Shown here: positions 7,493-62,833 of the stretch, piece by piece
Numbering within the stretch: the stretch's first letter is position 1
How the letters are laid out: every line of letters starts with the position of its first letter
Assembly: GCA_964649195.1 (NCBI GenBank)
Contig: CAZYPK010000004.1
Coordinates: 8,000 to 71,999, forward strand
Length of the DNA stretch: 64,000 bases
Reading direction: 5' to 3'
Source of the DNA: an uncultured Phycisphaeraceae bacterium
Lineage (GTDB): Bacteria > Planctomycetota > Phycisphaerae > Phycisphaerales > Phycisphaeraceae
Position numbers and translations under genes: made by a program
The notes under the pieces: generated by a model
The model's database searches: none
What the model was told of the DNA's origin: nothing
The model's input: the letters and a program-made list of their open reading frames with translations, nothing else

Positions 7493-8065
7493 TTAACCGA
7501 TCGGTTTCGCGGGTACGCCGCCGACCTTCGCGCCGGGAGGCACGGGTTTCACCACGACCGCGCCGGCGCCGACGATGGCCCCTTCGCCCACATCGGCCAT
7601 GATGATCGCCCCGGCGCCGAGCCAGGCCCCTTTGCCGATGGTGACCTGGCTGAAGGTCTGCTCGTTGTCGCGCAGGGTGGCGCTTTCGCTTGATTCGCTG
7701 CCGTGCTGATGCCGGCCCGAGAGAATCTGCACGCCGTCGGCGAGCATGGCATCATCACCGATCCGCGCCCAGCCGATGGTGCAGAAGCGACCGATATAGA
7801 CGCGATCGCCCAGCGCGGCCTGCCGCTTGCTGAAGAGCGACATGAAGCCGAAGTGAACATCTTCGCCGACGTGGGCGAGCGTCCTTTTGTAGAACGATTG
7901 CCGCACGAAATTCCCCAGCGGCCCGGTCCAACCGGCGATGGATTCGCTGATGCAGATGAAGGCGCGTTCCGGTCCGAGCACGGCCTTCCACAAACCATGC
8001 CGGATGCGATAAGGCGCTGCGAAGAGCGACCCCAGAACACGCGCGATGGATTTGGCTTTGCTCAC
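7493..8065 (-). CDS. Hexapeptide-repeat (LbH) acyl/acetyltransferase
   Basis: Repeats IGDDAMLADGVQI, IGKGAWLGAGAII and VGEGAIVGAGAVV. The listed ORF reaches 8140 (TTG), but its first roughly 25 codons are encoded by the CAGGAAA tandem repeat. GTG at 8065 is used here and the start is uncertain. Confidence 0.7.
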   Translation of the reverse strand: MSKAKSIARVLGSLFAAPYRIRHGLWKAVLGPERAFICISESIAGWTGPLGNFVRQSFYKRTLAHVGEDVHFGFMSLFSKRQAALGDRVYIGRFCTIGWARIGDDAMLADGVQILSGRHQHGSESSESATLRDNEQTFSQVTIGKGAWLGAGAIIMADVGEGAIVGAGAVVVKPVPPGAKVGGVPAKPIG

Positions 8066-8136
8066 GGAAAATGTATCGGCTGGAGGAGGGAGAAAGGCGG
8101 AAAACAGGGAAGCAGAAAAACAGGAAAGCAGGAAAT

Positions 8137-9450
8137 TCAAACCGGTTCACTGCGGCCGGGCGATGCCAATGCGTACTCCGTATTTTTCGCGTTCTCCTTG
8201 CCCAGCACCTTGTCGTAGATCGCCTCGATCTTCTCCATGCGGCGGGTGAAGCTGTATTGCCTTTCGATCAGCGTTCGGCCTTCTTCCGTCATGCGTTGCC
8301 GCAGCGGTTCATCGGTCACCGCCCGGCGCATCGCATCGGTCAGCGCATCCACATCGCCGATGTCCACCAGCAACCCGTTGACCCCGTCGGTGATCATCCC
8401 GGGCACGCCCGCCACCTTCGTCGAAACCACCGGCACGCGCATCGCCATCGACTCGAGCACCACGTTGGGCAACCCTTCGCGCAGGCTCGAAAGCACGAAC
8501 AAATCCATCGCGTGATACAGGGCAAGCGTGTCGCTGACGAACCCGAGCAGCTTCACGCGGTCGGCCACCTTCAGGTGATCGATCAGTTTTTGAAGCTCAG
8601 GTTTCGCATCGCCATCACCTGCGATCCACAGTTCGATGTCATGCCCTTCACGGATGAGTTTGGCGGCGGCCTGGATGAGCAGATTGAAACCCTTTTCCGC
8701 ACTGAGCCGCCCCACCGCACCAATCACCAGACGACTGCCGGGCGTGCCTTTGTCCAATCGCATCGGAGATTCGCCGGCGACGTGCCTGCGGCTGAAGGTT
8801 TTCTCATCGATCGCGTTATGCACCAGCGTGTGGCGATCTTCGGGAATCTTCAGTTCCTTCACCACCTCGAGCAGGTCTTCGGAGACGCAGATCACATGGT
8901 GATACCACTTGAGGCTCCAGCGATCGACGGCGTAATAGAGCGGCGTCCTGCTCGTGTGCTTCACCCAGCCATGCACGGTGGTCACCAGTTTCATCCTGTG
9001 AAACGGACGCAGCATCAGGCCGATGAGGTTCGATTTGTAATCGTGGCCATGCCATATCTTGACGTTGTACCGCTTGCAAAGACCGAGCATCCTGGCAAGC
9101 ACCTTGCGATCCAGCGGCCCGCGATCAGGCACGCTGATGAGCGGGCTGCTCCAGTTTTTGGCGCGATCCTGAACCGTGGCGAAGCCCTTGTCCTCGGGCG
9201 GATGCATATACGCGGCCGCCAGCCAATAGTTGGAATGAGAAAGGAAAGGCGAAGAGAGCAGAATTGTTTTGTCAGGACCGCCGCCTGTTTCAGTGACCAC
9301 ACGGGTATGAAGCACGACATCGCGCCCAGGCGGCGCGATGGGCAGGCCTTGGTCGTCAAGTTTCAGGTGGTCGGCAGGTGTGTCCACGGATGGCCTCGGG
9401 AACAAGCGGACGAACAGGAAGAAGCGGCGGATGGCGATCTCATGAAACAA
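8137..9450 (-). CDS. Glycosyltransferase family 4 (GT-B, group 1)
   Basis: Motifs GGGPDK, SLREGLPNVVLESMAMRVPVVSTKVAGVPGMI and a C-terminal E-x7-E type region. Confidence 0.85.
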   Translation of the reverse strand: MFHEIAIRRFFLFVRLFPRPSVDTPADHLKLDDQGLPIAPPGRDVVLHTRVVTETGGGPDKTILLSSPFLSHSNYWLAAAYMHPPEDKGFATVQDRAKNWSSPLISVPDRGPLDRKVLARMLGLCKRYNVKIWHGHDYKSNLIGLMLRPFHRMKLVTTVHGWVKHTSRTPLYYAVDRWSLKWYHHVICVSEDLLEVVKELKIPEDRHTLVHNAIDEKTFSRRHVAGESPMRLDKGTPGSRLVIGAVGRLSAEKGFNLLIQAAAKLIREGHDIELWIAGDGDAKPELQKLIDHLKVADRVKLLGFVSDTLALYHAMDLFVLSSLREGLPNVVLESMAMRVPVVSTKVAGVPGMITDGVNGLLVDIGDVDALTDAMRRAVTDEPLRQRMTEEGRTLIERQYSFTRRMEKIEAIYDKVLGKENAKNTEYALASPGRSEPV

Positions 9451-9630
9451 TCGCCCGCATTGGCATCGTCGTCTGTTTACATGAGCGATAGCGATGGCGC
9501 CGGAGAATCAGGGATTATTTTCGATTAGTGGCCACGTATGACAACCATGCAGACTGTACGCAGGACATGATTGGAAAGGTCGAAAAAAACGGCCGTTCGA
9601 TTTGGAGCCAGGGCGTGATAAGCAGAAAGG

Positions 9631-9715
9631 ACTCCTAAATAACCTCGCGCCCAAGCCGCTTGCGGCGTAGCAATCCCCTGGTTCACGGTACATCGGGCGG
9701 TTATTCAGAAGTCCC
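9631..9715 (+). repeat. Repeat family R1 (GAATAACC ... GGTTATTC hairpin element), copy 1
   Basis: Shared core AATAACC-N-CGCCCAAGCCGCTTGCGG-N-ATCCCCTGGTTCACGG-N-GGTTATTC with the other R1 copies. Confidence 0.8.
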
Positions 9716-9775
9716 GGAACTTTCTTCAAGCAAGTGGCCGGCGGGGTGGGCGGAGGTCTTCCGAACCTGAGTTCG

Positions 9776-10006
9776 ATAAGAGCGAGCCACGACGTAACAC
9801 GTCGCGGACATGAGCAGCCTCAAGGGTGGTCATGCACGCCTTGGACGGTGGAACTCGAAAACGCCAGGCATCGCATTCGCAGCCACGCGACAAACGGGCG
9901 CGTGCCGCTCATCCGCCGCGCGACGGATACCGCTCAGCCATCGCGCGATCGACACGCCTTCAGGTCGCACACGTCCGCGACTCGTTGAGTCGCGGCTCAC
10001 TCTTAC
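9776..10006 (+). repeat. Repeat family R2 (twin CCGCGAC-hairpin element with about 45-bp terminal inverted repeats), copy A
   Basis: Left hairpin CCACGAC-GTAACAC-GTCGCGG and right hairpin CCGCGAC-TCGTTGA-GTCGCGG. Inner TIR strands ACATGAGCAGCCTCAAGG and CCTTCAGGTCGCACACGT. Confidence 0.8.
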
Positions 10007-12238: not shown

Positions 12239-12451
12239 CGTTTCATTCTTCCTCCCATCACCGGAAGCAAAAGTTCCAAATCGCAAATTCCAAATCTCAA
12301 ACAAACTCGAAAGCGAGCCGAACCGAGGCAAAACCGATCCGAATCCGGATTCTGTTTGATTGCGTTTTTTGTTCTTTGGAGCTTGTTTGGAGTTTGAAGT
12401 TTGTCATTTGGAACTTCCGACAGCGTGGGTGCCGGGGATTAAACAACCCTG
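12239..12451 (+). mobile_element. MITE family R3 (CCAAAT-heptamer foldback), copy 1, inserted in R6 copy 1
   Basis: Absent from the otherwise identical R6 copy 2. Flanked by imperfect direct repeats CAAGCCGGGC and TAAGCCGGC. Internal inverted arms are TTCCAAATCGCAAATTCCAAATCTCAAACAA and TTGTTTGGAGTTTGAAGTTTGTCATTTGGAA. Confidence 0.8.
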
Positions 12452-12460
12452 TAAGCCGGC

Positions 12461-12668
12461 TTCCAAACTTGCATCATTTCCCGGGTTGATTACGCTGTCT
12501 GCATCTTCGTTCGGGAATGTCAGGGGCGGCGGCTTGCCGTTGGGGTTTGTTGCTCGCTTGGTACCCATCTCTGATCAGGGAATCCGTTGCCGCGCACTCC
12601 TTGAGCAGCGAATGCCCCCGTTTTACGCGACATGCCTGTTTGTTAGGCATGACAGGTCGTTTCCCCCT
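12461..12668 (+). repeat. R6 duplicate, 208-bp block, copy 1
   Basis: Identical to 13428-13635 except one T/C difference (GCCTGTTTG versus GCCTGCTTG), by hand alignment. Confidence 0.9.
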
Positions 12669-13399: not shown

Positions 13400-13635
13400 T
13401 ATCTGCGATTGCCCTGCAAACCGGGCCTTCCAAACTTGCATCATTTCCCGGGTTGATTACGCTGTCTGCATCTTCGTTCGGGAATGTCAGGGGCGGCGGC
13501 TTGCCGTTGGGGTTTGTTGCTCGCTTGGTACCCATCTCTGATCAGGGAATCCGTTGCCGCGCACTCCTTGAGCAGCGAATGCCCCCGTTTTACGCGACAT
13601 GCCTGCTTGTTAGGCATGACAGGTCGTTTCCCCCT
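13393..13635 (+). repeat. R6 duplicate, uninterrupted copy 2, upstream of glnN
   Basis: See copy 1. Ends 175 nt before the glnN start codon. Confidence 0.9.
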
Positions 13636-16030: not shown

Positions 16031-16070
16031 CGAACAAAGTTGCTCGCGTATGTAACAGACAAAGACTCTT

Positions 16071-16158
16071 GGGATTCCTGAATAACCGCACGCCCAAGCC
16101 GCTTGCGGTTTCGCGATCCCCTGGTTCACGGGCAATCGGGGGTTATTCAAGAAGTCCT
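16071..16158 (+). repeat. Repeat family R1, copy 2
   Basis: GGGATTCCTGAATAACCGCACGCCCAAGCCGCTTGCGGTTTCGCGATCCCCTGGTTCACGGGCAATCGGGGGTTATTCAAGAAGTCC. Confidence 0.85.
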
Positions 16159-16174
16159 CTTATCAACAGCCCGG

Positions 16175-16206
16175 CCCGAGGATTCAACTCCTCGGGCTTT
16201 TTCTTT
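16175..16206 (+). terminator. Rho-independent terminator candidate downstream of glnN
   Basis: Stem CCCGAGGA/TCCTCGGG, loop TTCAAC, then CTTTTTCTTTG. Confidence 0.6.
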
Positions 16207-16216
16207 GCCTCGCAGC

Positions 16217-16383
16217 AAGCCGCGACTCAACGAGTCGCGGACGTGAACAACCTGAAGCGGCGGAAATCGCGCAGTGACATAAGACCTCGAAAATCGTGAC
16301 CCGTCGGAACGCGGCTTCCTGTCATCCGCGCCGCCTTGCGCGCTTTCAGGCTGTTCGCCTCCGCGACGTGTCACGTCGCGGCT
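16217..16383 (+). repeat. Repeat family R2, copy B (shorter interior)
   Basis: CCGCGAC-TCAACGA-GTCGCGG ACGTGAACAACCTGAAG ... CTTTCAGGCTGTTCGCCT CCGCGAC-GTGTCAC-GTCGCGG. Lies 48 nt upstream of the ABC-F start. Confidence 0.8.
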
Positions 16384-18263: not shown

Positions 18264-18357
18264 ATAACACCACGAAATCAGGAAAGCAGGAAAACATGAA
18301 ATGCAGATCATCCATTCCGTATGGTCCCGCCTGGTTTCCTGATTTCATGGTTTTATT
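18263..18357. repeat. Inverted repeat between convergent ABC-F and isomerase genes (terminator-like)
   Basis: AATAACACCACGAAATCAGGAAAGCAGG and CCTGGTTTCCTGATTTCATGGTTTTATT, with a roughly 40-nt spacer. Confidence 0.75.
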
Positions 18358-22138: not shown

Positions 22139-22243
22139 AAGAAGATGCCGGTCAACCGAGCGGTCCTGATACAATCCACTCCGCCTCATTTTTACGGCAG
22201 GCGCACGCAACGCATCAATGCACTCTCCACGAAAGGATCACGT

Positions 22244-23701
22244 ATGGCCATGGGCATGTTCATGCTGTTCCCCATTCTTCTGCTCGGCGGCGGCATGGGC
22301 GGCGCCAACGAACTGATCGATTACCTTCAGACCGAGCATTACTGGAAGACGCGCAACATCACCCCCGATGTGGCCACCCTTTCCGCCATGCTCGTCACCG
22401 ATCCCAAGGCCGAGGATATCTCCGCGCTGATCAGGCAACTGGGGCACGATGACTTCGACAAACGCGAGGCGGCCAGCGAAGCGATCGGCAGAAAAGGCCC
22501 GGGCGTCATCCCGCAACTGAAGGAAGCCGCCAAGTCCACGGACGCCGAGATCGCCGACCGGGCTTCGCGGCTGATCACTCATCTCTCCGGCGGCGACAGC
22601 GACCCCGCCATTCACAGGCTCATGATCATCCGCTCGCTGGGTGAAACCAAGGACAAGGCCGCCCTTGCGGCGCTCAAGACGCAGCTTGATTCGAAGGAGC
22701 CTTTCGCCGGCGAGTTTGCCCGCCGTGCGATCGCCAAAATCGAAGGCCTGCCTCATCAGCCGGCCACCACTTCGATCGAAAGCTACGAGAAGGATGTGTG
22801 GCTGCTGCCCAACGGCGTCAAGCTGGTGACGCAGATGACGATGACCTCCGGCGGTCCCGCCGACTGGGCCAGGATTCTGGCCAACGCCAAAAATCCCCTG
22901 GGAGAAGAGGTGCCCAAGGAGGACATGTTCAAGGAAGTACAATCCGGTGTGGCCATGGCGCTCAACACCGTGGGCAACATCCGCATCGACGGCTTCACGC
23001 TGGGCCTGTCGGACAGCCCCGGCCCCGACTCGGGCTTTGTCGTCATGCTGGTGCGCGGCCAATACAGCCGGGAGAAGCTCAAGAACCTGTTCAAGTCGAA
23101 GGGCATCGAGGTGACCCGGGAGGATGGCATCGATGCGGTGACGCCGCCGAATGCCAACATGAAATTGCTGTTCGTCTCCGATGAGCTGCTGCTGGTCATC
23201 GGCGGTCCGCGCGATGCGCAGGCCTGGCCGGTGAAGGAGATGACGGCGGCGATCAAGGCGGGCAAGGGCACCCTCGGCGAAGACGCGGCGATGGTGAAGC
23301 TGATCAACGCCGCCGACCGCAAATCAGGCGGCTGGGCCGCGATTCAGATGACGGAGACGTATCGCTCAGGCGGGCCGTGGATGAAATCGTTTGACACCGT
23401 CCTGGCCAGTCGCAAAAGCGAAAAGGGCAAAACATCCATCAAGGTCGTCGGCACGGGAAGCGATGCCGATGCGGTTCAACACTCGGTCAAGGAAATGAAC
23501 ACCGGCCTGGAGCAGATGCGGGGCAAGATGAATGAAATCGCCGGCATGATGCCCAAGCCTTTCATCGACTTCGCCAACAGCCTGAAGGTGGAAGCCGATG
23601 GCAAATCGGCCACGCTCACCGGCAGCATCGAAGGCGGCTTCGAGGACATCATCGGCTCCATGCTCTTCCCCATGATGATGCTGGGTGGCCCGGGCTTTTG
23701 A
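22244..23701 (+). CDS. Hypothetical secreted/membrane protein with HEAT-like N-terminal repeats
   Basis: GAAAGGA RBS before the ATG at 22244, then a hydrophobic N-terminus. DDFDKREAASEAIGRKGPGVIPQLKEAAKS is a repeat-type segment. No enzymatic motif found. Confidence 0.65.
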   Translation: MAMGMFMLFPILLLGGGMGGANELIDYLQTEHYWKTRNITPDVATLSAMLVTDPKAEDISALIRQLGHDDFDKREAASEAIGRKGPGVIPQLKEAAKSTDAEIADRASRLITHLSGGDSDPAIHRLMIIRSLGETKDKAALAALKTQLDSKEPFAGEFARRAIAKIEGLPHQPATTSIESYEKDVWLLPNGVKLVTQMTMTSGGPADWARILANAKNPLGEEVPKEDMFKEVQSGVAMALNTVGNIRIDGFTLGLSDSPGPDSGFVVMLVRGQYSREKLKNLFKSKGIEVTREDGIDAVTPPNANMKLLFVSDELLLVIGGPRDAQAWPVKEMTAAIKAGKGTLGEDAAMVKLINAADRKSGGWAAIQMTETYRSGGPWMKSFDTVLASRKSEKGKTSIKVVGTGSDADAVQHSVKEMNTGLEQMRGKMNEIAGMMPKPFIDFANSLKVEADGKSATLTGSIEGGFEDIIGSMLFPMMMLGGPGF

Positions 23702-23765
23702 GAACCTGAGTTCGGGATACGAATGAGCCGCGACGTAACACGTCGCGGAGATGAACGGCAAGATG
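23702..23765 (+). repeat. Repeat family R2, solo end D
   Basis: GAACCTGAGTTCGGGATACGAATGAGCCGCGACGTAACACGTCGCGGAGATGAAC resembles the left end of copy A, including the outer GAACCTGAGTTCG. No second hairpin nearby. Confidence 0.7.
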
Positions 23766-23879
23766 GCGTTGTCCATCATGCGAAGGATCATCGGACGCGA
23801 AAACGACCGGGACATGGTTTGAGGCTTGGCTTTTTCTGTCTCCTGTCTCCTGTCTCCTGTCCCCTGTCCCCTCTGACCT

Positions 23880-24765: not shown

Positions 24766-24866
24766 GGGATTTCCGAATAACCCCCGATGTACCGTGAACC
24801 AGGGGATCGCGATTTGCGAAGCCGCAAGCGGCTTGGGCGTGAGATTATTCAGGAATCTCAGCACCC
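24766..24866 (-). repeat. Repeat family R1, copy 3 (reverse orientation)
   Basis: The reverse complement matches copy 2 along its length. Lies between the divergent SIS gene and hisA. Confidence 0.85.
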
Positions 24867-28143: not shown

Positions 28144-28185
28144 CACCTGGGCCGGGGCTTCGCGGACTCAGCCCCAGCCACCCGC
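28144..28185 (+). repeat. Repeat family R4, right arm only
   Basis: CACCTGGGCCGGGGCTTCGCGGACTCAGCCCCAGCCACCCGC, directly abutting MITE R3 copy 2. Confidence 0.75.
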
Positions 28186-28186
28186 C

Positions 28187-28372
28187 GTCGGAAGCAAAAA
28201 TTCCAAATCACAAATTCCAAATCTCAAACAAACTCGAAAGCGAGCCGAACCGGGCAAAACCGATCAGAGACCGGATTCCGTTTGATTGCGTTTTTTTGTT
28301 TTTGGATCTTGTTTGGAGTTTGGGCATTTGTCATTTGGAACTTCCGGCAGGTGGCTTGGATACCGGGGGTAC
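28187..28372 (+). mobile_element. MITE family R3, copy 2 (5'-truncated)
   Basis: The core CGGAAGCAAAAATTCCAAATCACAAATTCC...CATTTGGAACTTCCGGCAG is about 90 percent identical to copy 1 by eye. Overlaps the stop of the HEAT gene. Confidence 0.75.
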
Positions 28373-32203: not shown

Positions 32204-32322
32204 GGGTGGCTGGGGCTGAAGGCTCTGCGCAAGCCCCGGCCCAAGGGACCATCAGCGATCAGTTGCCTCACCTTGCTTTGTGCGCCTGGGCCGGGGCTTC
32301 GCGGACTCAGCCCCAGCCACCC
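32204..32322. repeat. Repeat family R4 palindrome (GGGTGGCTGGGGCTGA ... TCAGCCCCAGCCACCC), copy 1, nested in outer inverted repeats 32079-32366
   Basis: Arms GGGTGGCTGGGGCTGAAGGCTCTGCGCAAGCCCCGGCCCAAGG and CCTGGGCCGGGGCTTCGCGGACTCAGCCCCAGCCACCC. Confidence 0.8.
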
Positions 32323-33738: not shown

Positions 33739-33778
33739 ATAAGAGCCGCGACTCAACGAGTCGCGGAGATGAACAGTC
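33739..33778 (+). repeat. Repeat family R2, solo end E
   Basis: ATAAGAGCCGCGACTCAACGAGTCGCGGAGATGAAC. Confidence 0.7.
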
Positions 33779-33779
33779 T

Positions 33780-33862
33780 GGACTTCCCCACTCCCGGTGG
33801 GCGCGGCGAAAGGACGGCATAATGCTGTCCTTTCGCCGCGCCCACCGGGAGTGGGGAAGTCC
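33780..33862. repeat. Perfect 36-bp-arm palindrome (83 bp)
   Basis: GGACTTCCCCACTCCCGGTGGGCGCGGCGAAAGGAC, then GGCATAATGCT, then GTCCTTTCGCCGCGCCCACCGGGAGTGGGGAAGTCC. Arms verified base by base. Confidence 0.9.
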
Positions 33863-33976
33863 AATTGGTTATTATTTATTCGTTATTGCTTATTTCTTAT
33901 TGAAGGGACGATGGACAGCGGCGAAGGCTGCTCCCCCAATAAGCAATAAGCAATCATCAATAAATAATAACCAATT
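33863..33976. repeat. AT-rich heptamer-periodic inverted repeat
   Basis: Arms AATTGGTTATTATTTATTCGTTATTGCTTATTTCTTATTG and CAATAAGCAATAAGCAATCATCAATAAATAATAACCAATT around a GC-rich 35-nt centre. Confidence 0.85.
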
Positions 33977-34087
33977 GCCTTTCCTGTCCCCTGTTCCCTC
34001 CGACTTCCGACACCCTCAGCCCGTTGGCTACAATGCCGGGTGTCGCAGGAGTTGATTGTTCCTGCCTTGCAACTGAAAGGTGCTCGA

Positions 34088-35764: not shown

Positions 35765-36526
35765 CTACATCGGCGGACGCGCGGCGTGTCTGGGATCGAT
35801 GCCCACGCGCGTGCCTTCGGCGGTGTGCTCGGTGGCCGGCGTTTCATGCGCCTTGTCGCGCTGAAGCGACTTTTTCCGCTCGTGGCAGACGCTGACAATC
35901 CTGATCGCTTCCTCGATGCTGTCGGTCACACTGAACAGGTCCATGTCCTGCGGCGAAATGCTGCCATACTTGCCGAGCATCGTTTTCTTGAGCCAGCCCA
36001 CCAGGCCGTCCCAGTAGTCGTGCCCGATGCAGACGACGGGGAACGGATCGATTTTTCCGGTCTGGATCAGCGTCATGGATTCGAAGAATTCATCCATGGT
36101 GCCGAACCCGCCGGGGAAGATGATGAAGCCGCAGGCATACTTGACGAACATGACCTTGCGGACGAAAAAGTAGCGGAAGTCGAGGGAATAATCGCCGGAC
36201 AGATACGGGTTGGCCTGCTGTTCCATCGGCAGGCTGATGTTCAGGCCGATGGATTTGCCGCCCGCCTTGTAGGCGCCCTTGTTGGCCGCCTCCATGATGC
36301 CCGGCCCGCCGCCGGTGATCACCGAGAAGCCGGCCTTGACCAGTTGCCTGCCGCAGTCCACCGCGCCTTTGTAGTACGGATCATCAGGCTTGGTGCGGGC
36401 GGACCCGAAGACCGAAACGGCCGGCCCCACCTTGTTGAGCTTCTCAAAGCCATCGACGAACTCCGAGAGAATGCGAAACATCCGCCAGGTGTCTTTGCTC
36501 AGACGCAGGTCATCTTCCAGGGACAT
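35765..36526 (-). CDS. LOG family / TIGR00730 Rossmann protein (nucleotide phosphoribohydrolase)
   Basis: GGGPGIMEAAN and PGGFGTMDE motifs. Start set at the ATG at 36526 (MSLEDD). Confidence 0.88.
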   Translation of the reverse strand: MSLEDDLRLSKDTWRMFRILSEFVDGFEKLNKVGPAVSVFGSARTKPDDPYYKGAVDCGRQLVKAGFSVITGGGPGIMEAANKGAYKAGGKSIGLNISLPMEQQANPYLSGDYSLDFRYFFVRKVMFVKYACGFIIFPGGFGTMDEFFESMTLIQTGKIDPFPVVCIGHDYWDGLVGWLKKTMLGKYGSISPQDMDLFSVTDSIEEAIRIVSVCHERKKSLQRDKAHETPATEHTAEGTRVGIDPRHAARPPM

Positions 36527-36637
36527 GGTGAGATTCGCCTCAGGTGAAAAAGTTCGGACCAACGACAACCGCATCGTGAATACGGACGCTGCACGGATCA
36601 TCGTGCATCGGCTTGCACGAGGCAAATGGAGGATGAG

Positions 36638-36855
36638 AAGAGCCGCGACTCAACGAGTCGCGGACGTGAACGGCCTGAAGGATGGTCAAACACACCTTCG
36701 ACAGCAGAACTCGAACACGACAGACACCACACTTCGCAACCGGGAGACAACCGGGGGCAACCGGCGGCAACCGCGCGATCGACGCTGATCATCCGCCGCG
36801 CGAAGGACGCCTCTTCAGGCTGTTTACGTCCGCGACGTGTTACGTCGCGGCTCTT
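36638..36855 (+). repeat. Repeat family R2, copy C
   Basis: AAGAGCCGCGACTCAACGAGTCGCGGACGTGAACGGCCTGAAGG ... CTTCAGGCTGTTTACGTCCGCGACGTGTTACGTCGCGGCTCTT. Lies 49 nt upstream of the MDR oxidoreductase start. Confidence 0.85.
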
Positions 36856-36903
36856 ATTCCGTCCATTTCGCTACCATGCACGCGACTTCAAGGAGGCTTC
36901 ACC

Positions 36904-37899
36904 ATGCGTGCCATGACTGTCACCCAATACGGCGGCCACGAGGTGCTCCGACTTCAGGACCTGCCCAAGCCCGTGCCCGGCGACAATGATCTGCTTGTCG
37001 AAGTCATTCGCGCCGGCTTGAATCCCGTCGATTTCAAAATCCGATCGGCGCCGCGCTGGGGTGAAAGGAAGTTCCCCTTCATTCTCGGTTACGACGTGAG
37101 CGGCGTCGTTCGCGGCATGGGCGCCAACTGCACGGGCTTCTTCCACATCGGCGATGAAGTCATCGCGTCGCCCAGTCTCAAACGTGACGGCTCCAATGCC
37201 GAGTATGTCTGCGTCGATCACCGCTCGGCGGCGAAGAAGCCTGCCACGCTCGATCACGACCACGCAGCCGCCCTGCCGCTGGCGGGACTCACCGCGTGGG
37301 AATCGCTGCACAATCACGGGCGGATGATGCCCGGTGAGGCCGGGGGCTGGGTGCTCATTCACGCAGGTGCGGGCGGCGTGGGCCACTTCGCCATTCAGCT
37401 TGCAAAGATTCACGGCTGCAAGGTCATCACCACCGCCGGCCGGGAGGAGACCATCGCCGTCTGCAAGGCGCTGGGTGCCGATGAAGTGATCAACTACAAG
37501 ACCGATGACATCGCGGCCCGCGTGACCGACATCACCGGCGGCAAACTCTGTCCGGTCGTCTTCGACACCGTCGGCGGCGAGACGTTCAATGTGTCGCTGC
37601 GCTGCGTCGGATACTACGGCCGCGTGGTCACCATCGTGCCCGGCATTCCGACCGATCACATCAACTCCCTCTTCGCCAAAAGCGCCTCGGTTCATCTGGA
37701 ATACATGGGCATTCCCACGATGTTCGATGTCGATCCGCAAAGGCAGGGCGCGACCCTGGCGAAGATGGCCTCGCTGGTCGATGAGGGCAAACTCAAGCCG
37801 ATCGTCAGCCATCGCGTGAAGCTGGAAAATCTCGCCGAGGCCCACCGCCTTCAGGAAACCGGCAGAACGATCGGCAAGATCGTCATCGAAGTGAAATGA
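36904..37899 (+). CDS. Zinc-type alcohol dehydrogenase / NADPH:quinone oxidoreductase (MDR family)
   Basis: AAGGAGG RBS before the ATG at 36904. IHAGAGGVGHFAIQLAK is the nucleotide-binding motif. GKIVI is at the C-terminus. Confidence 0.88.
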   Translation: MRAMTVTQYGGHEVLRLQDLPKPVPGDNDLLVEVIRAGLNPVDFKIRSAPRWGERKFPFILGYDVSGVVRGMGANCTGFFHIGDEVIASPSLKRDGSNAEYVCVDHRSAAKKPATLDHDHAAALPLAGLTAWESLHNHGRMMPGEAGGWVLIHAGAGGVGHFAIQLAKIHGCKVITTAGREETIAVCKALGADEVINYKTDDIAARVTDITGGKLCPVVFDTVGGETFNVSLRCVGYYGRVVTIVPGIPTDHINSLFAKSASVHLEYMGIPTMFDVDPQRQGATLAKMASLVDEGKLKPIVSHRVKLENLAEAHRLQETGRTIGKIVIEVK

Positions 37900-37917: not shown

Positions 37918-38135
37918 TCAAGGTCGTTTATTTCTCCGAAGCGCCTTTATCAGGAAACTCCAAATGACAAAGCTCAAGCTCCAAACAAGCTCCAAAATAC
38001 GAACATGGAACAAACAAGGAATTCGGATCACGCAGTATTTCCGCCTTTTTTCTTTGGAATTGGAGCTTGTTTGAGATTTGGTGATTGCGATTTGTGATTT
38101 CAGACCGCACGTCAACCAAGAATTAACCGGCCCTG
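37918..38135 (+). mobile_element. MITE family R3, copy 3 (diverged), inserted in a terminator hairpin
   Basis: Flanked by a perfect 9-bp direct repeat ACGGACTCC (37909-37917 and 38136-38144). Removing it restores the hairpin CCCACGGACTCCCGTCCGTGGG, identical to the one at 55429. Confidence 0.85.
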
Positions 38136-45520: not shown

Positions 45521-45637
45521 GGGTGGCTGGGGCTGAGTCCGCGAAGCCCCGGCCCAAGGGACCACCAGCTATCAGTTGCTTCACCTTGCTTCGTGCGCCT
45601 GGGCCTGGGCTTCGCGGACTCAGCCCCAGCCACCCGC
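45521..45637. repeat. Repeat family R4 palindrome, copy 2
   Basis: Near-identical arms to copy 1. Preceded by the tandem GAGAAGTTTTGGGT x2. Ends in CCACCCGC at the junction with the TA cassette 1 leader. Confidence 0.8.
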
Positions 45638-45717
45638 CGGATCGTGACGTTCGCGCTCGGCGCCGGCAGCGGAACCCGCGGGAATTCCCGTGTGATTTCT
45701 GATATCATATTTGCACC
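45638..45717 (+). promoter_or_regulatory. Conserved leader of TA cassette 1 (putative promoter/operator)
   Basis: CGGATCGTGACGTTCGCGCTCGGCGCCGGCAGC...GGGAATTCCCGTGTGATTTCTGATATCATATTTGCACC is homologous to 46670-46758. Contains a TGATATCA palindrome and a TATCAT -10-like hexamer. Confidence 0.5.
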
Positions 45718-45960
45718 ATGGTCACGCTAAACGCCCATTTCGACGGCAAGGTGCTCGTGCCCGACGAGCCGCTGGATTTGCCGGCGAACCAGAAGGTCCG
45801 CATCCAGGTCGAGCCGATCGAAGCCGATCCGAAGCGGACTGACTTCAGCCAATGGATCGGCTTGGCCGCTCATCCGAATCAAAAACCCTATGACCCCGCC
45901 GAGGAAGACGCACTCTGGGAGAAGGGCCCGCTTCGGCAGACCGACTCTCATCCGCGCTGA
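45718..45960 (+). CDS. DUF104/AF2212-like antitoxin, cassette 1
   Basis: MVTLNAHFDGKVLVPDEPLDLPANQKVRIQVEP matches the antitoxin-family pattern. Lies 12 nt upstream of the PIN gene. Confidence 0.8.
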   Translation: MVTLNAHFDGKVLVPDEPLDLPANQKVRIQVEPIEADPKRTDFSQWIGLAAHPNQKPYDPAEEDALWEKGPLRQTDSHPR

Positions 45961-46356: not shown

Positions 46357-46365
46357 GCGGAAGAA

Positions 46366-46669
46366 TCAACCACGGTCCGCGTCGTGTCGCCCTCGAACTT
46401 CCAGGCGGCGATGTCGGCCGGGATTCTGCCCCATCATCTGTGCGGCGCCCCTCGGATTGGCTATTCTGTTCATCCTTCACGGCTTACTTGGGCAGGTTTG
46501 GCGGCGTTTGCGAACTCGTGATGTGGGATGATTCTCCCCTTGAATTGAGTTTCCCATGAGCGGATTGCTTCTCATCATCTCCGGCCCTTCGGGCGTCGGC
46601 AAAACGACCATCACGCACCAGGCCGAGCGCGAGCTTCAAGGTGTCTTCAGCGTTTCCATGACCACCCGC
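46366..46669 (+). repeat. 304-bp duplicate A of the gmk upstream region plus first 37 codons
   Basis: By hand alignment to 47530-47833, the 190-bp upstream part is identical. About 5 substitutions all fall in the coding part. Confidence 0.9.
46556..46669 (+). pseudogene. 5' fragment of guanylate kinase (first 37-38 codons), truncated by TA cassette 2
   Basis: MSGLLLIISGPSGVGKTTITHQAERELQGVFSVSMTTR is near-identical to the start of gmk at 47720. Reading continues into the cassette leader (RIVTFTLGAG...). Confidence 0.85.
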
Positions 46670-46758
46670 CGGATCGTGACGTTCACGCTCGGCGCCGGCA
46701 GCACCGGCGGCGGAACATGCGGGAATTCTCGCGTGATCTCCGCTATCATGATTGCATC
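46670..46758 (+). promoter_or_regulatory. Conserved leader of TA cassette 2
   Basis: CGGATCGTGACGTTCACGCTCGGCGCCGGCAGC...GGGAATTCTCGCGTGATCTCCGCTATCATGATTGCATC. Confidence 0.5.
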
Positions 46759-47004
46759 ATGGTCACGTTAAACGCCCATTTCGATGGCAAGGTGATCGTC
46801 CCCGACGAACCGCTGGCCCTGAAGCCCAACCAGAAACTCCGCATCAGCGTCGAGCCGATCGAACCGTCTGCTCCCGGCGAACCGAAGCCCAGGCGAATTC
46901 TTGGCCAGCAGCCCGGCGCCGTCACGTTCCTCGCTCCCGACTGGAACGCGCCGCTTCCTGACGACATCTGGGGCCACAACCAAGACGACGAGCCCAAGCC
47001 ATGA
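46759..47004 (+). CDS. DUF104/AF2212-like antitoxin, cassette 2
   Basis: MVTLNAHFDGKVIVPDEPLALKPNQKLRISVEP. The first roughly 45 codons are about 80-85 percent identical at nucleotide level to cassette 1, judged by eye. Confidence 0.8.
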   Translation: MVTLNAHFDGKVIVPDEPLALKPNQKLRISVEPIEPSAPGEPKPRRILGQQPGAVTFLAPDWNAPLPDDIWGHNQDDEPKP

Positions 47005-47390: not shown

Positions 47391-47529
47391 TCACGCCGCC
47401 ATCGACAACCCGCCGGGGATGTTGGTGTTGACCGGCTGGCAGACCGGGCCGTTCTGGGCGCGGGGGTTGAACCGGAACGCCGTCAGCCACACCGTCGCGC
47501 CGTTGACCACGCCGACGGGGAACTCGACA

Positions 47530-47833
47530 TCAACCACGGTCCGCGTCGTGTCGCCCTCGAACTTCCAGGCGGCGATGTCGGCCGGGATTCTGCCCCATCA
47601 TCTGTGCGGCGCCCCTCGGATTGGCTATTCTGTTCATCCTTCACGGCTTACTTGGGCAGGTTTGGCGGCGTTTGCGAACTCGTGATGTGGGATGATTCTC
47701 CCCTTGAATTGAGTTTCCCATGAGCGGATTGCTTCTCATCATCTCCGGCCCTTCGGGTGTCGGCAAAACGACCATCACGCACCAGGTGGAGCGCGAGCTT
47801 CAAGGGGTGTTCAGCGTTTCCATGACCACCCGC
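47530..47833 (+). repeat. 304-bp duplicate B (native gmk promoter and 5' coding region)
   Basis: See duplicate A. Continues into intact gmk. Confidence 0.9.
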
Positions 47834-51262: not shown

Positions 51263-52422
51263 ACATCGCCATCGCCATCGAGCGGTTCGATCCCCTGGCC
51301 TCGGGCATCGAACGATCCACCCATCAGATCGCCACCCACCTGATCGGCAAAGGCCATCGCGTGGCCGTCATCACCGGCGAGGCGCCGCCGGACCTCACGC
51401 TCGACGGCGGAGAAATCATCAACGGAAACACCGTCAACTTCCGCCATCGCGTCAGCGTCTCGGCATTCGCCCGATGGGCGCCATCGGCCTTGGCCCGGCA
51501 ACAGGCCGACATCACGCTCTCCATGTCGATGGCCTGCCCCGCCATGCTCGTCGCGCCGCGCCAAGGGCTGCTGGCGGAACGGATCAAACGCGAAGCGGCC
51601 GCCGGCAACGTGCCACCATCGAAGATGCGCAGCGCCGCATGGCAATGGCTCAATCTGCCCCGGCAAGTCAGCCTCAAGCGGGAGCGCGCGACAGCAGGCA
51701 ACCCCGTCATTCGCAGGTTCATCGCCATCAGTCGTTACGTCGCCAGGCAACTGGAGGAACATCACGACATCCCGCGCGACATGATCGAGCTGATCCCCAA
51801 CGCATCGGAGTTGCCGGTGGTTTCCAACGAGCAGCGCATCAGCCATCGCAGGCGAATTCGATCGGGCTTTCAGGTCGCCGAGGACGCCCTCACCCTGCTC
51901 TTTTTCGCCCAGCACAACTCCCGGCTCAAGGGCATCGATCCCCTGCTGCCGGCGCTGCGCAAGCTCATCGATCAGGGAAGCAACATCACCCTGCTGCTGG
52001 CCGGCCACATCCCCTACCGCGATCAACTGCACATCGCCCGGCTGAACCTCCGCCGGCAGGTTCGCATGATCGGTCCGACGAATCAGATCGCCGAGCTGCT
52101 GTGCGCCACCGACATCACAGCCATGCCTTCGTTCTTCGATCCGTCCGGCAAAATCGTGATCGAGTCGCTGATGATGGGCGTGCCGGTGGTGACCAGCCGA
52201 TACAACGGCGCCGGCGACTTTCTGCATGATGAAGCCGGAAAGGCTTCCGGCCGGATCATCGAAAACCCCGCCGACACCGATGAACTCGCCGCCGCCATCG
52301 CTTCGTTCATCAGTCCCGAATCGCGCCTTGCCTGCCACCAATATGCAGCCCGCTGGCGGGAACAGCTTGCCATGTCGCGGCACGTCGATCAGCTTGAATC
52401 GCTGATGCTGGATTCTGTTTGA
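51259..52422 (+). CDS. Glycosyltransferase family 4 (GT-B)
   Basis: ATGA overlap with the GT9 gene. FFDPSGKIVIESLMMGVPVVTSRYNGAGDFL motif. The last 4 codons and stop are supplied by MITE R3 copy 4. Confidence 0.85.
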   Translation: MNIAIAIERFDPLASGIERSTHQIATHLIGKGHRVAVITGEAPPDLTLDGGEIINGNTVNFRHRVSVSAFARWAPSALARQQADITLSMSMACPAMLVAPRQGLLAERIKREAAAGNVPPSKMRSAAWQWLNLPRQVSLKRERATAGNPVIRRFIAISRYVARQLEEHHDIPRDMIELIPNASELPVVSNEQRISHRRRIRSGFQVAEDALTLLFFAQHNSRLKGIDPLLPALRKLIDQGSNITLLLAGHIPYRDQLHIARLNLRRQVRMIGPTNQIAELLCATDITAMPSFFDPSGKIVIESLMMGVPVVTSRYNGAGDFLHDEAGKASGRIIENPADTDELAAAIASFISPESRLACHQYAARWREQLAMSRHVDQLESLMLDSV

Positions 52423-52514
52423 TTGCGTTTTTTTGTTCTTGGAGCTTGTTTGGAGTTTGAGATTTGTCATTTGGAACTTCCAACAGAGTGGGGGCCGAGA
52501 ATTAAACGACCCTG
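52410..52514 (+). mobile_element. MITE family R3, copy 4 (right half only)
   Basis: GGATTCTGTTTGATTGCGTTTTTTTGTTCTTGGAGCTTGTTTGGAGTTTGAGATTTGTCATTTGGAACTTCC...ATTAAACGACCCTG matches the right half and right end of copy 1. Confidence 0.75.
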
Positions 52515-52634
52515 TTCCGGGCCTCGTTCTCCGTTGCCCGCGCGATCGACGATTGCTACCTTACCGCTTCGCCGCGATCGGTCACACGCCGGCGAATCCT
52601 TATTTCACCGGACCTTTCGTCGAGGAGTCTTTCC

Positions 52635-62400: not shown

Positions 62401-62633
62401 AAGAGGATCGTTTCCGATCGATCCAGCCACCAGCACAAAAGCGGAAACAGGATGACAAACATCAAGAGCGGCCAGGCGCCTTGAAGCGAAACCGGTTGCC
62501 GCCGCGGCGGAAGCAACGCCGTCCGGAAAGAAACGAACCAACTCGATGCCGAGGCACGCATCGCCGCCACCGAGGAAGCCTGCGCTCCGTAACGGCTGTC
62601 GATGGTCCTGGATCGGCGGTCGGATGGAGGCAT
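59496..62633 (-). CDS. Large membrane protein with two VWA domains (Bat/MoxR-operon type)
   Basis: N-terminal TM helices. VVFVVDASASI and AIVVDRSGSM are MIDAS motifs. ISDG/LTDGE motifs. C-terminal TM helix plus charged tail. Confidence 0.85.
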   Translation of the reverse strand: MPPSDRRSRTIDSRYGAQASSVAAMRASASSWFVSFRTALLPPRRQPVSLQGAWPLLMFVILFPLLCWWLDRSETILFTRLWPFGFIAAAPWFWWLGEAGYGNLSRSRAVLALVARFVLLGLFIVALAEPRAVRKDEGLSVVFVVDASASIRPEARDEALRYASRIARGKPEKDQAGLIFFGRSAAVELPPGPTLPIDENSPAMNVQVDYDGTDIAKALSLAAAMLPREKNGRIVLISDGVATEGELAATLDDLKSKGIPVDVMPVVYEYEDEVWLEHLELPRAVKVGEDYNASVVLSSLKKGKGRLRLLENGQPYFEDDVEFGAGKNRFIIPIRLRTAGYYEYTAHIDVEDRKDAAGKIIAVLDHKKENNKAVNHLYLRGKGKVLVVVDDTGDPRDHNRLVESLHTAGREVETQSALEFARDAAALLPYDCIIFANVPAGMFDAQQMEAVHEAVYAQGTGFLMVGGANSFGPGGYHKTAIERTLPVAMDITSRKFLPAGALAIVVDRSGSMMSSFATSPKSKQSVANEAAVAAAKTLFPRDWLGVIAFDTDPLWVVPMSEVENPDAASKQIRTIGPGGGTNMYPALNEAIAALRRLPKGEVAVKHIILLTDGESMPGNDAHVVAQCLDAQITLSTVGIGNDANHAILAPLSRATGGTHYPVNDPRMLPRIFIKEAMTLRRSMIQNVTFTPSVLFPHASLEGIDSIPALDGYVLTSPKPKSQVILRGPIEEEVDPVLAIWRHGLGASAAWTSDLSPNWAANWIQWPKYDPFVKQLITSISRTSDESTLRVRSFVASGQGIIIVEDYGERDAFLAVESYIEGPRGLEATVSLKQVGPNRYEGRFPLKGEGTYKIMTAGASSDGKAQRVHSRLVMPYSQEYMQFRSRPVVLHDIAQKSGGRVLTGGDGETSAFIYAADRTAKRSSAPIIDWVLILLACMIPLDVGLRRVQIDMEMVRAWFTLGRRDQPSEATFNKLRAKKGEVTSALKGRAQAKEKTEPQPAMNIEIGKPPPLPPGVRRDAPSEQVEEAESSTSRLLAAKRRVQEKQ

Positions 62634-62636
62634 GGA

Positions 62637-62700
62637 GGGAGGGAAAAACAGGAAAGCAGGAAAACAGGAAAACAGGAAAACAGGAAATTCAAACCTTCTA
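62637..62700 (+). repeat. CAGGAAAA octamer tandem repeat (related block at 8085-8140)
   Basis: CAGGAAAGCAGGAAAACAGGAAAACAGGAAAACAGGAAATTCAAACC, compared with GCAGAAAAACAGGAAAGCAGGAAATTCAAACC at 8105-8143. Confidence 0.8.
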
Positions 62701-62730
62701 GGACGGTGGCATCATGTCGATTTCCTTCGT

Positions 62731-62833
62731 GGGATTCCTGAATAACCTCACGTCCAAGCCGCTCGCGGCTTCGCTCCCCCCTTCTTCATCGTCGTAGCAA
62801 TCCCCGGTTCACGACATGCACCGGTTATTCATA
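62731..62833 (+). repeat. Repeat family R1, copy 4 (with internal insertion)
   Basis: GGGATTCCTGAATAACCTCACGTCCAAGCCGCTCGCGG...GCAATCCCCGGTTCACGACATGCACCGGTTATTC. Confidence 0.8.

Follow-up and report, generated by a model that had tools for sequence, protein, structure and literature searches.

In a 64,000-nucleotide stretch of contig CAZYPK010000004.1 from an uncultured Phycisphaeraceae bacterium (GenBank assembly GCA_964649195.1, contig positions 8,000 to 71,999; hereafter the window, to which all positions without a locus label refer), we studied a twin-hairpin element, copy C, together with its relatives. The element is a copy of a short non-coding repeat that is dispersed between the genes of Phycisphaeraceae (Planctomycetota). 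We consider it likely, with a probability of about 0.75, that it belongs to a family of repetitive extragenic palindromic (REP)-type repeats that populate the intergenic DNA of this group as inverted pairs, an arrangement known as REP dimers or REPINs. A preliminary description, made from the letters of the window, had offered three interpretations: an invertible switch, a foldback miniature inverted-repeat transposable element (MITE), or an element of the kind associated with REP-associated tyrosine transposases (RAYTs). The last of these is supported by imperfect palindromes that are extragenic, by their arrangement as inverted pairs, by variable spacers, and by a sequence frame in common with pairs that flank RAYT genes. 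The analysis documents a REP/REPIN-type population and a candidate RAYT lineage in Phycisphaeraceae, where such elements have barely been described, and for annotation it means that the pairs account for much of the intergenic repetition in these genomes.

The arms form a hairpin with compensatory stem variants

The three full copies (A, B and C) and two solo ends listed in the preliminary description were all verified in the window, with their coordinates and motifs (Table 1). A search of the window for CCGCGAC-N7-GTCGCGG with at most 2 mismatches gave 9 matches, compared to a mean of 1.7 in shuffled sequence (0 of 100 shuffles reached 9); eight of the nine are arms of the family, and an arm profile search of the window recovered those eight and no others. 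Read inward, an arm of about 50 nt comprises a tGAG/AGCC tag, a 9-bp GC-rich stem with an AAC triloop, and ACGYCAACGGCCTGAAGG...(A)TCGCGC; the consensus is tGAG-CCGCGACKY-AAC-RMGTCGCGG-ACGYCAACGGCCTGAAGGRG, with (A)TCGCGC frequently next. Stem and asymmetric triloop make up a 21-nt core, which occurs as type X (CCGCGAC-TC-AAC-GA-GTCGCGG), as type Y (CCGCGAC-GT-AAC-AC-GTCGCGG), which differs from X by two compensatory base-pair changes, and as type Z (GC-AAC-GC), frequent in other genomes. The preliminary description had correctly recognised the shared CCGCGAC/GTCGCGG stem, whereas the different 7-nt loops that it placed on this stem resolve into two further base pairs and the AAC triloop.

In an alignment of 116 distinct arms, 98.9% of the stem cells were paired. 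The innermost two pairs covary (X: TC/GA; Y: GT/AC; Z: GC/GC), the eighth pair being U-A in 65 arms, G-C in 51 and unpaired in none, and the ninth being C-G in 72, U-A in 40 and unpaired in 4. As a control, pairing was lost when the partner column of this alignment was shifted by one to three positions. Uncommon forms include a fourth combination, TT-AAC-AA, and the mismatched intermediates GCAACAC, TCAACAA and GCAACCC; the direction of the AAC loop is inward in all arms. We take the hairpin to be under selection: its shape and the direction of its loop are conserved, while two pairs of the stem are free to vary. That pairing is always kept among X, Y and Z points to recognition or function of the extruded hairpin, as single-stranded DNA or RNA.

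On the outer side of the stem, G is found at -1 in 116/117 arms, A at -2 in 114/117, G at -3 in 98/117 and T at -4 in 61/117, and conservation ends abruptly at -3/-4. The outer tag reads tGAG/AGCC, not GTAG, and the inner side ACGYC. The arms of copy C, 43 nt long and 86% complementary with 132 nt between them, yield a long foldback upon single-strand folding (z = -6.9 as DNA and -8.9 as RNA), which is expected of any two consensus arms and not peculiar to this copy.

The family occurs as inverted pairs in related genomes

Comparison DNA consisted of 75 related loci (about 744 kb; labelled L001 onward) from Phycisphaeraceae metagenome-assembled genomes (MAGs) and microbial-mat metagenomes. A scan of one genome per species revealed the hairpin in MAGs of Phycisphaeraceae, Phycisphaerales and Planctomycetota, with most of the matches, among those listed, in one MAG; a metagenome scan with the Y hairpin gave 40 further loci from microbial-mat assemblies. 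The related DNA does hold further copies, with 155 arms that fall into 64 inverted pairs plus 27 solitary arms, at least 7 of the latter cut by contig ends. The orientation of the pairs is always AAC ... GTT, and their end combinations are XX 19, XY 12, YX 12, YY 5, ZY 3 and YZ 2, counts that include orthologous copies from different samples. From one outer hairpin end to the other the elements span 99-213 nt, with hairpin-to-hairpin spacers of 57-171 nt that are highly variable in length and sequence; most interiors are unalignable, and only small subfamilies were seen. The window comes from a different, though related, genome: apart from the repeat arms, it has no more than a few diverged genes, 70-84% identical, in common with the related loci.

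Ten orthologous sets, eight of pairs and two of single arms, could be followed across samples (flanks 97-100% identical; A, B and C are not among them). No flip was observed in the seven typable pair sets (2-4 samples each), in which spacer orientation and end types follow the flanks exactly.

We compared the arms of an element with each other and with the arms of other elements. Own arms matched at 12.8 of 25 positions and arms of other elements at 12.9 (36 elements; permutation p = 0.66), indicating that arms track the consensus of the family and not their own partner arm. This bears on the foldback interpretation, in which the element would be an ordinary MITE, mobilised through binding of a DDE transposase to its terminal inverted repeats. 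Such an element would be small and present in many copies, as is the case here, and the inverted ends of about 45 nt and the subfamilies with related interiors would suit it too. We nevertheless consider it improbable, since no direct repeat that could represent a target-site duplication is visible at the ends of 44 non-redundant full elements, own arms are no more complementary than the arms of other elements, arm pairs 0.4-4 kb apart in the related DNA enclose ParB, Ser/Thr kinase or other host genes and no transposase, and what is conserved is mainly a structured hairpin with compensatory changes, as is typical of HUH/Y1 substrates.

A RAYT-like gene is flanked by a sister class of pairs

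The preliminary description had suggested a search for a RAYT gene. A motif search of all six-frame translations of the related loci identified two Y1/HUH proteins, at L068:1807-2412 and L021:6427-7080 (-). The former matches Pfam Y1_Tnp at 29.4 bits (cut-off 23), and its best NCBIfam match is the REP-associated tyrosine transposase (52 bits; cut-off 80). It has more than 5000 homologues at E < 1e-10, many of them named 'REP element-mobilizing transposase RayT' by JGI and several from Phycisphaerae or Planctomycetes records. In five loci (L068:1683-2450, L077, L079:2877-3721, L081 and L082) the gene keeps the same neighbours, a PIG-L deacetylase gene upstream and the gene for a 320-aa protein downstream, and the proteins are 63-83% identical to that of L068, a pattern that fits a vertically inherited, single-copy RAYT.

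In all five loci the RAYT gene is flanked by pairs of a second hairpin class, GTTTAGCC-GTCGNGC-AAC-GCNCGAC-GCGGA ... about 60 nt ... CCGCGTCGNGC-GTT-GCNCGACGGCTAAAC, with one complete pair on each side of the gene in L079. Class 2 and the family studied here (class 1, CCGCGAC) have in common the AGCC outer frame, the AAC/GTT triloops, the CGGA inner frame and the inverted arrangement, but differ in the stem. All perfect hairpins with an 8-bp stem and an AAC triloop in the related loci and the window belong to one of these two classes, and class 2 is also present away from the RAYT gene (L033:4563-4690). Around more distant homologues, the flanking hairpins carry a GTTTAGCG tag and have other stems. 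The second Y1 gene, in L021, is flanked on both sides by a different hairpin, GCTAC-GCCGC-GA-GCGGC, which is near-identical to that of another repeat family of the window (see below). Thus a RAYT-like Y1 gene is present in related genomes, although the hairpins around it are those of the sister class and not of the CCGCGAC class.

The unit of the family is the arm of about 50 nt, two of which face each other across a spacer that varies in length and sequence. By analogy with REPIN/RAYT systems, the pairs would be non-autonomous elements that owe their spread and maintenance to a RAYT-type HUH/Y1 transposase, which may recognise the hairpin and its AGCC-side tag; the compensatory variants X, Y and Z would be good substrates for probing such recognition. 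Many copies lie right after stop codons. Copies are probably also part of 3' untranslated regions, in which hairpins of this kind can protect or terminate transcripts.

Several observations weigh against a REPIN-type reading. The tGAG/AGCC tag differs from the GTAG and CGTC tags by which REPs are classified, and many of the 57-171-nt spacers are longer than the 20-100 bp that REP dimers usually have (PMC3733652). The related DNA yielded no RAYT gene with class-1 hairpins at its flanks, so that the link runs via the sister class, and the RAYT-like proteins score 52 and 48 bits, below the NCBIfam REP_Tyr_transpos cut-off of 80. The lack of excess complementarity within elements offers no hint that selection acts on the long foldback stressed in the REPIN papers. 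Neither empty sites nor insertion polymorphism nor excision was seen in the ten orthologous sets, where the element is kept at identical length; this is a weak test of mobility because all ten sets come from one species-level population. Lastly, divergent promoter regions hold five of the pairs, copies A and C among them, and a role in RNA at 3' ends therefore cannot be general.

Comparison with known repeat systems

Escherichia coli bacterial interspersed mosaic elements (BIMEs) combine Y and Z REPs, which alternate in orientation, with linker motifs; they are extragenic, often at 3' ends, and binding by gyrase, IHF and Pol I is known. BIMEs and the present family are both mosaics of REP variants inverted across linkers, but the REP sequences and the linkers differ.

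REPINs are made of two imperfect REP palindromes in inverted orientation with an asymmetric centre; their spacers vary in length and sequence, singlets are remnants, and RAYT genes are flanked by REPINs (PMC3337134). The GI-GIII elements of Pseudomonas fluorescens SBW25 (Bertels and Rainey; PMC3337134, PMC3116915) show the same inverted REP pair around a variable spacer, with AA/TT as the asymmetric centre where the present family has AAC/GTT, and a single-copy Y1/HUH gene flanked by pairs, which we see here for the sister class. The family differs from them in its often longer spacers and its AGCC/tGAG outer tag. Pairs of mixed stem variants are common here, whereas hybrid REPINs were not found in SBW25, and, unlike SBW25 REPINs, for which rare excisions of whole pairs have been found, the present elements lack extra complementarity between their own arms and evidence of excision.

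Tagged REPs fall into sub-families that differ by complementary stem changes; they form homodimers as well as heterodimers, some dimers joining units that differ in their stems, decay into singlets, prefer tandem and convergent intergenic regions, and have already been reported in Planctomycetes (Di Nocera, De Gregorio and Rocco 2013; PMC3733652). Their dimers resemble the present elements in having short GC-rich stem-loops with an unpaired terminal tag, mostly arranged as inverted dimers with the tags outside, and in the frequency of heterodimers, exemplified by the different-stem GTAG-24 dimers of P. aeruginosa. The tag found here fits neither the GTAG nor the CGTC consensus, although the inner ACGYC places CGT beside the stem on the other strand. 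The family is absent from the 28 listed in PMC3733652 and, in contrast to these, is conserved for a further 25-30 nt inward of the hairpin.

Two other identities were considered and rejected. An IS200/IS605-type element would carry both end hairpins on one strand, and was ruled out because the left loop reads AAC and the right loop GTT, so that the ends are truly inverted. Integron attC sites came into consideration for their AAC/GTT cores (RYYYAAC ... GTTRRRY) that pair mutually, in cassette arrays beside an integrase. Type X reads ACTCAAC/GTTGAGT but type Y reads ACGTAAC, each end folds on itself, and the copies, instead of forming cassette arrays, are scattered among housekeeping genes.

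Genomic context of the copies

Table 1. Copies, arms and hairpins of the twin-hairpin family in the 64-kb window
Feature	Position	Strand	Description
Copy C	36639-36854	no strand	Complete dimer, X arm + spacer + Y arm; profile search
Copy C arms	36639-36692; 36798-36854	+; -	Profile matches
Copy C hairpins	36643-36663; 36830-36850		First hairpin CCGCGAC TC AAC GA GTCGCGG; hairpin pattern search
Copy A	9784-9999	no strand	Complete dimer, Y arm + spacer + X arm
Copy A arms	9784-9840; 9942-9999	+; -	Profile matches
Copy A hairpins	9787-9807; 9975-9995		First hairpin with one mismatch; hairpin pattern search
Copy B	16218-16383	no strand	Shorter dimer, X arm + spacer + Y arm (loop variant GTGAC AC)
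Copy B arms	16218-16273; 16337-16383	+; -	Profile matches
Copy B hairpins	16220-16240; 16361-16381		Hairpin pattern search
Lone Y arm	23724-23777	+	Profile match; hairpin 23728-23748
Lone X arm	33742-33780	+	Profile match, model positions 2-40 only; hairpin 33746-33766

All arms are intergenic or overlap the end of a gene by about 10-15 nt (rough gene call based on GC content at third codon positions). By intergenic context, pairs are tandem in 27 cases, convergent in 12 and divergent in 5. Many elements start at the upstream stop codon or a few nt beyond it (in L001, L003 and L016 the TGA within the tGAG tag is itself the stop codon), some fill a whole convergent gap (L068:9171-9305, L070 and L002), and elements adjoin stop codons more often than start codons. 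In the window, copies A and C each lie between divergent genes (for C, a LOG-family gene on the minus strand and a Zn-dehydrogenase gene on the plus strand), and copy B lies between the genes for glutamine synthetase III and ABC-F. The lone Y arm begins 23 nt past the stop codon of the gene at 22145-23701, in a convergent intergenic region, and the lone X arm lies 26 nt upstream of a WD40/PSCyt1 gene start. The genes neighbouring the window copies encode glycosyltransferase, glutamine synthetase III, ABC-F, HEAT-repeat, SIS, WD40/PSCyt1, DUF3299, LOG-family and Zn-dehydrogenase proteins, one of them with a Planctomycete cytochrome C domain that fits the placement of the window in a related genome.

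The position of the elements at gene ends also suits a host-selected RNA element, whose hairpins would act as 3'-end protectors or bidirectional terminators and would be kept for function, not through selfish spread. Convergent contexts outnumber divergent ones (12 and 5), the many elements that begin at a stop codon and fill a whole convergent gap are placed as such a role would have them, pairing is kept via compensatory changes with an occasional G-U, and the right hairpin of copy C scores as terminator-like. We think this account somewhat unlikely: most hairpins have no T-run after them, copies A and C, like one single arm, sit in divergent promoter regions, a single-stranded DNA substrate would equally predict the compensatory changes, and an Rfam search of the window gave no family at gathering score. 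At relaxed scores, a plant microRNA precursor was the sole Rfam match, hit by copy A at 23 bits (cut-off 124 bits), which we attribute to chance.

A programmed invertible switch, in which inversion of the spacer by a site-specific recombinase would activate or silence neighbouring genes (phase variation), had been the first interpretation of the preliminary description. It draws on the short segment bracketed by inverted repeats and on the 48-49 nt that separate copies B and C from the start codons of the ABC-F and Zn-dehydrogenase genes, a distance that we confirm for these two copies and that is not a family-wide feature. Against a switch stand the dozens of dispersed copies in all intergenic contexts with unrelated spacers, the free mixing of end types in all combinations, the lack of a strong link between stem type and arm (see below), and the single orientation found across samples in the orthologous sets. 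Furthermore, the neighbours of the window copies are ordinary genes with no recombinase or transposase gene among them, and no promoter-like site was found in 36400-37000, in or around copy C. A switch is thus very improbable, and the label 'regulatory switch' is unwarranted in annotation.

Some further structures lie close to the copies. Just upstream of copy B, at 16170-16210 by the glutamine synthetase III gene, we observed a terminator-like hairpin with a T-run (CCCGAGG...CCTCGGGCTTTTTCTTT), from which it follows that ordinary intrinsic terminators coexist with REP-type hairpins in this genome. A mini-hairpin, (G/C)AAC-CTGA-GTT(C/G), is found 12-15 nt outside three arms of the family (9764-9776, 23703-23715 and L001:1700-1712); in L001 it has a compensatory change and lies inside the end of a coding region, and the three sites are the only occurrences of AACCTGAGTT in the 744 kb. 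The lone X arm is cut off about 15 nt inward of its hairpin, at the start of an unrelated palindrome (33779-33863; 42-nt arms, 98% complementary, 1 nt apart) that begins exactly at the truncation point and is followed by a second inverted repeat at 33855-33984. The palindrome looks like a repeat inserted into, or replacing part of, another repeat.

Copies A and C carry exchanged ends on a co-linear spacer

The end hairpins of copy A (GTAACAC ... TCGTTGA) are exchanged relative to those of copy C (TCAACGA ... GTGTTAC). Upon global alignment of the whole elements, A and C scored 177 when co-linear and 102 when one was reverse-complemented. The interiors alone, stripped of the hairpins and of 20 nt from each arm, scored +87 in the same orientation and -30 in the opposite one (shuffled sequences: mean 12, maximum 34), and BLAST aligned them on the plus strand (74.7% over 75 nt; E = 4e-9). 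The same-strand match of the interiors despite the reversed ends, noticed by eye in the preliminary description, is hence borne out, and A is not simply the reverse complement of C throughout. Since the interiors are co-linear with the end types exchanged, A can be written as Y..interior(+)..X' and C as X..interior(+)..Y'. Copy B has ends of the order X..Y', like C, as had been described, but its interior shows no significant similarity to that of A or C in either orientation, so that only its ends can be typed.

We found a second swap of the A/C type among the related loci, between L004 (XY) and L041 (YX), whose spacers are co-linear (+43 vs -9). L050 holds two neighbouring elements with spacers in the same orientation (+40 vs -4) and with XY and XX ends, that is, with a change at one end. 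Tests of stem type against adjacent arm positions gave mostly p > 0.05 and a few uncorrected p < 0.01, with no strong association. We conclude that, in general, the stem variant is uncoupled from the spacer in these elements and that the A/C swap reflects this uncoupling, not programmed inversion. The conclusion of uncoupling without ongoing switching follows from the lack of a strong link between stem and arm, from the paralogues, from the orthologues without a flip, and from arms that match the consensus.

The inversion of the spacer by recombination between the terminal repeats, as the preliminary description had it, would be one of several routes to the pattern seen in A and C. Chloroplast non-coding DNA offers a precedent in small hairpin-associated inversions, which, like quasipalindrome template switching, are sporadic mutational events with no dedicated enzyme; flipping between short inverted repeats, or copying of one arm onto the other, is thereby precedented, though in neither case in a repeat family. 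Here, the spacer could have been inverted in an ancestor of A or C, by recombination or replication template switching between the inverted arms of about 45 nt; this would be compatible with a REP dimer and would concern only the origin of the X/Y swap. One such past event would account for both ends and, with A and C taken alone, is the most economical explanation, but we judge it less likely than not. The arms are long enough (43 nt, 86% complementary), both informative heterotypic paralogue pairs with alignable spacers are swapped (A/C and L004/L041), and the X arm of A is nearer to the X arm of C (3/18 differences) than to its Y arm (6/18) by a count made by eye. The Y arm of A, however, is not nearer to the Y arm of C (5 differences) than to its X arm (4), stem type has no strong link to the adjoining arm, and no flip occurs in any orthologous set. 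In addition, all end combinations exist and L050 changed at one end with its spacer orientation kept; two independent X-to-Y changes from an XX ancestor would therefore yield the same picture half the time.

It is conceivable, but doubtful, that the spacers of REPIN-type dimers flip recurrently through recombination or template switching between inverted REP arms, leaving both internal orientations in one family. A term count did not find the word 'inversion' in the REPIN papers searched. If true and frequent, such flipping would be an undescribed way for REPIN-type repeats to diversify, and it would occasionally reorient any spacer-borne signal beside a gene. The free mixing of end variants, along with the two cases of swapped ends on a co-linear spacer, bears on how REP dimers evolve.

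Other repeats in the window

A second repeat family, with units of about 90 nt, occurs at 9624-9714, 16067-16157, 24775-24860 (reverse) and 62727-62788, and also at L021:6400-7140. Its units have inverted ends, GGATTCCTGAATAACC ... GGTTATTCAGGAATCC, and contain the hairpin GCCGC-TT-GCGGC and, after it, the letters GTAG. Copies A and B of the twin-hairpin family each lie about 60-70 nt downstream of a unit of this second family.

Three more types of repeat were observed. The dispersed TGGGCCGGGGCTTCGCGGACTCAGCCCCAGCCACCC family, found at 28148-28183, 32287-32322, 45521-45556 (reverse) and 45600-45635, has 36-nt arms that are 97-100% identical and forms an inverted pair at 45521-45635. An A/T-richer family (12251-12459, 28178-28347, 37953-38104 in reverse, and 52390-52515) is built on AAATTCCAAATC.CAAATTCCAAATCTCAAAC and the complement TTTGGAGCTTGTTTGGAGTTTG, in inverted halves. 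Short runs that repeat every 8 nt, AAAACAGG/AAAGCAGG (read from the opposite strand, CCTGTCTC), are present at 8081-8143, 18267-18309, 62625-62703 and 23836-23870 and sit at the ends of several intergenic regions.

We also observed long direct duplications spaced about 1 kb apart, which suggest tandemly duplicated small genes or cassettes: 12460-12668 is identical to 13427-13635 (209 nt, 100%), 46365-46664 resembles 47529-47828 (300 nt, 98%), and 45660-45822 resembles 46701-46863 (163 nt, 82%).

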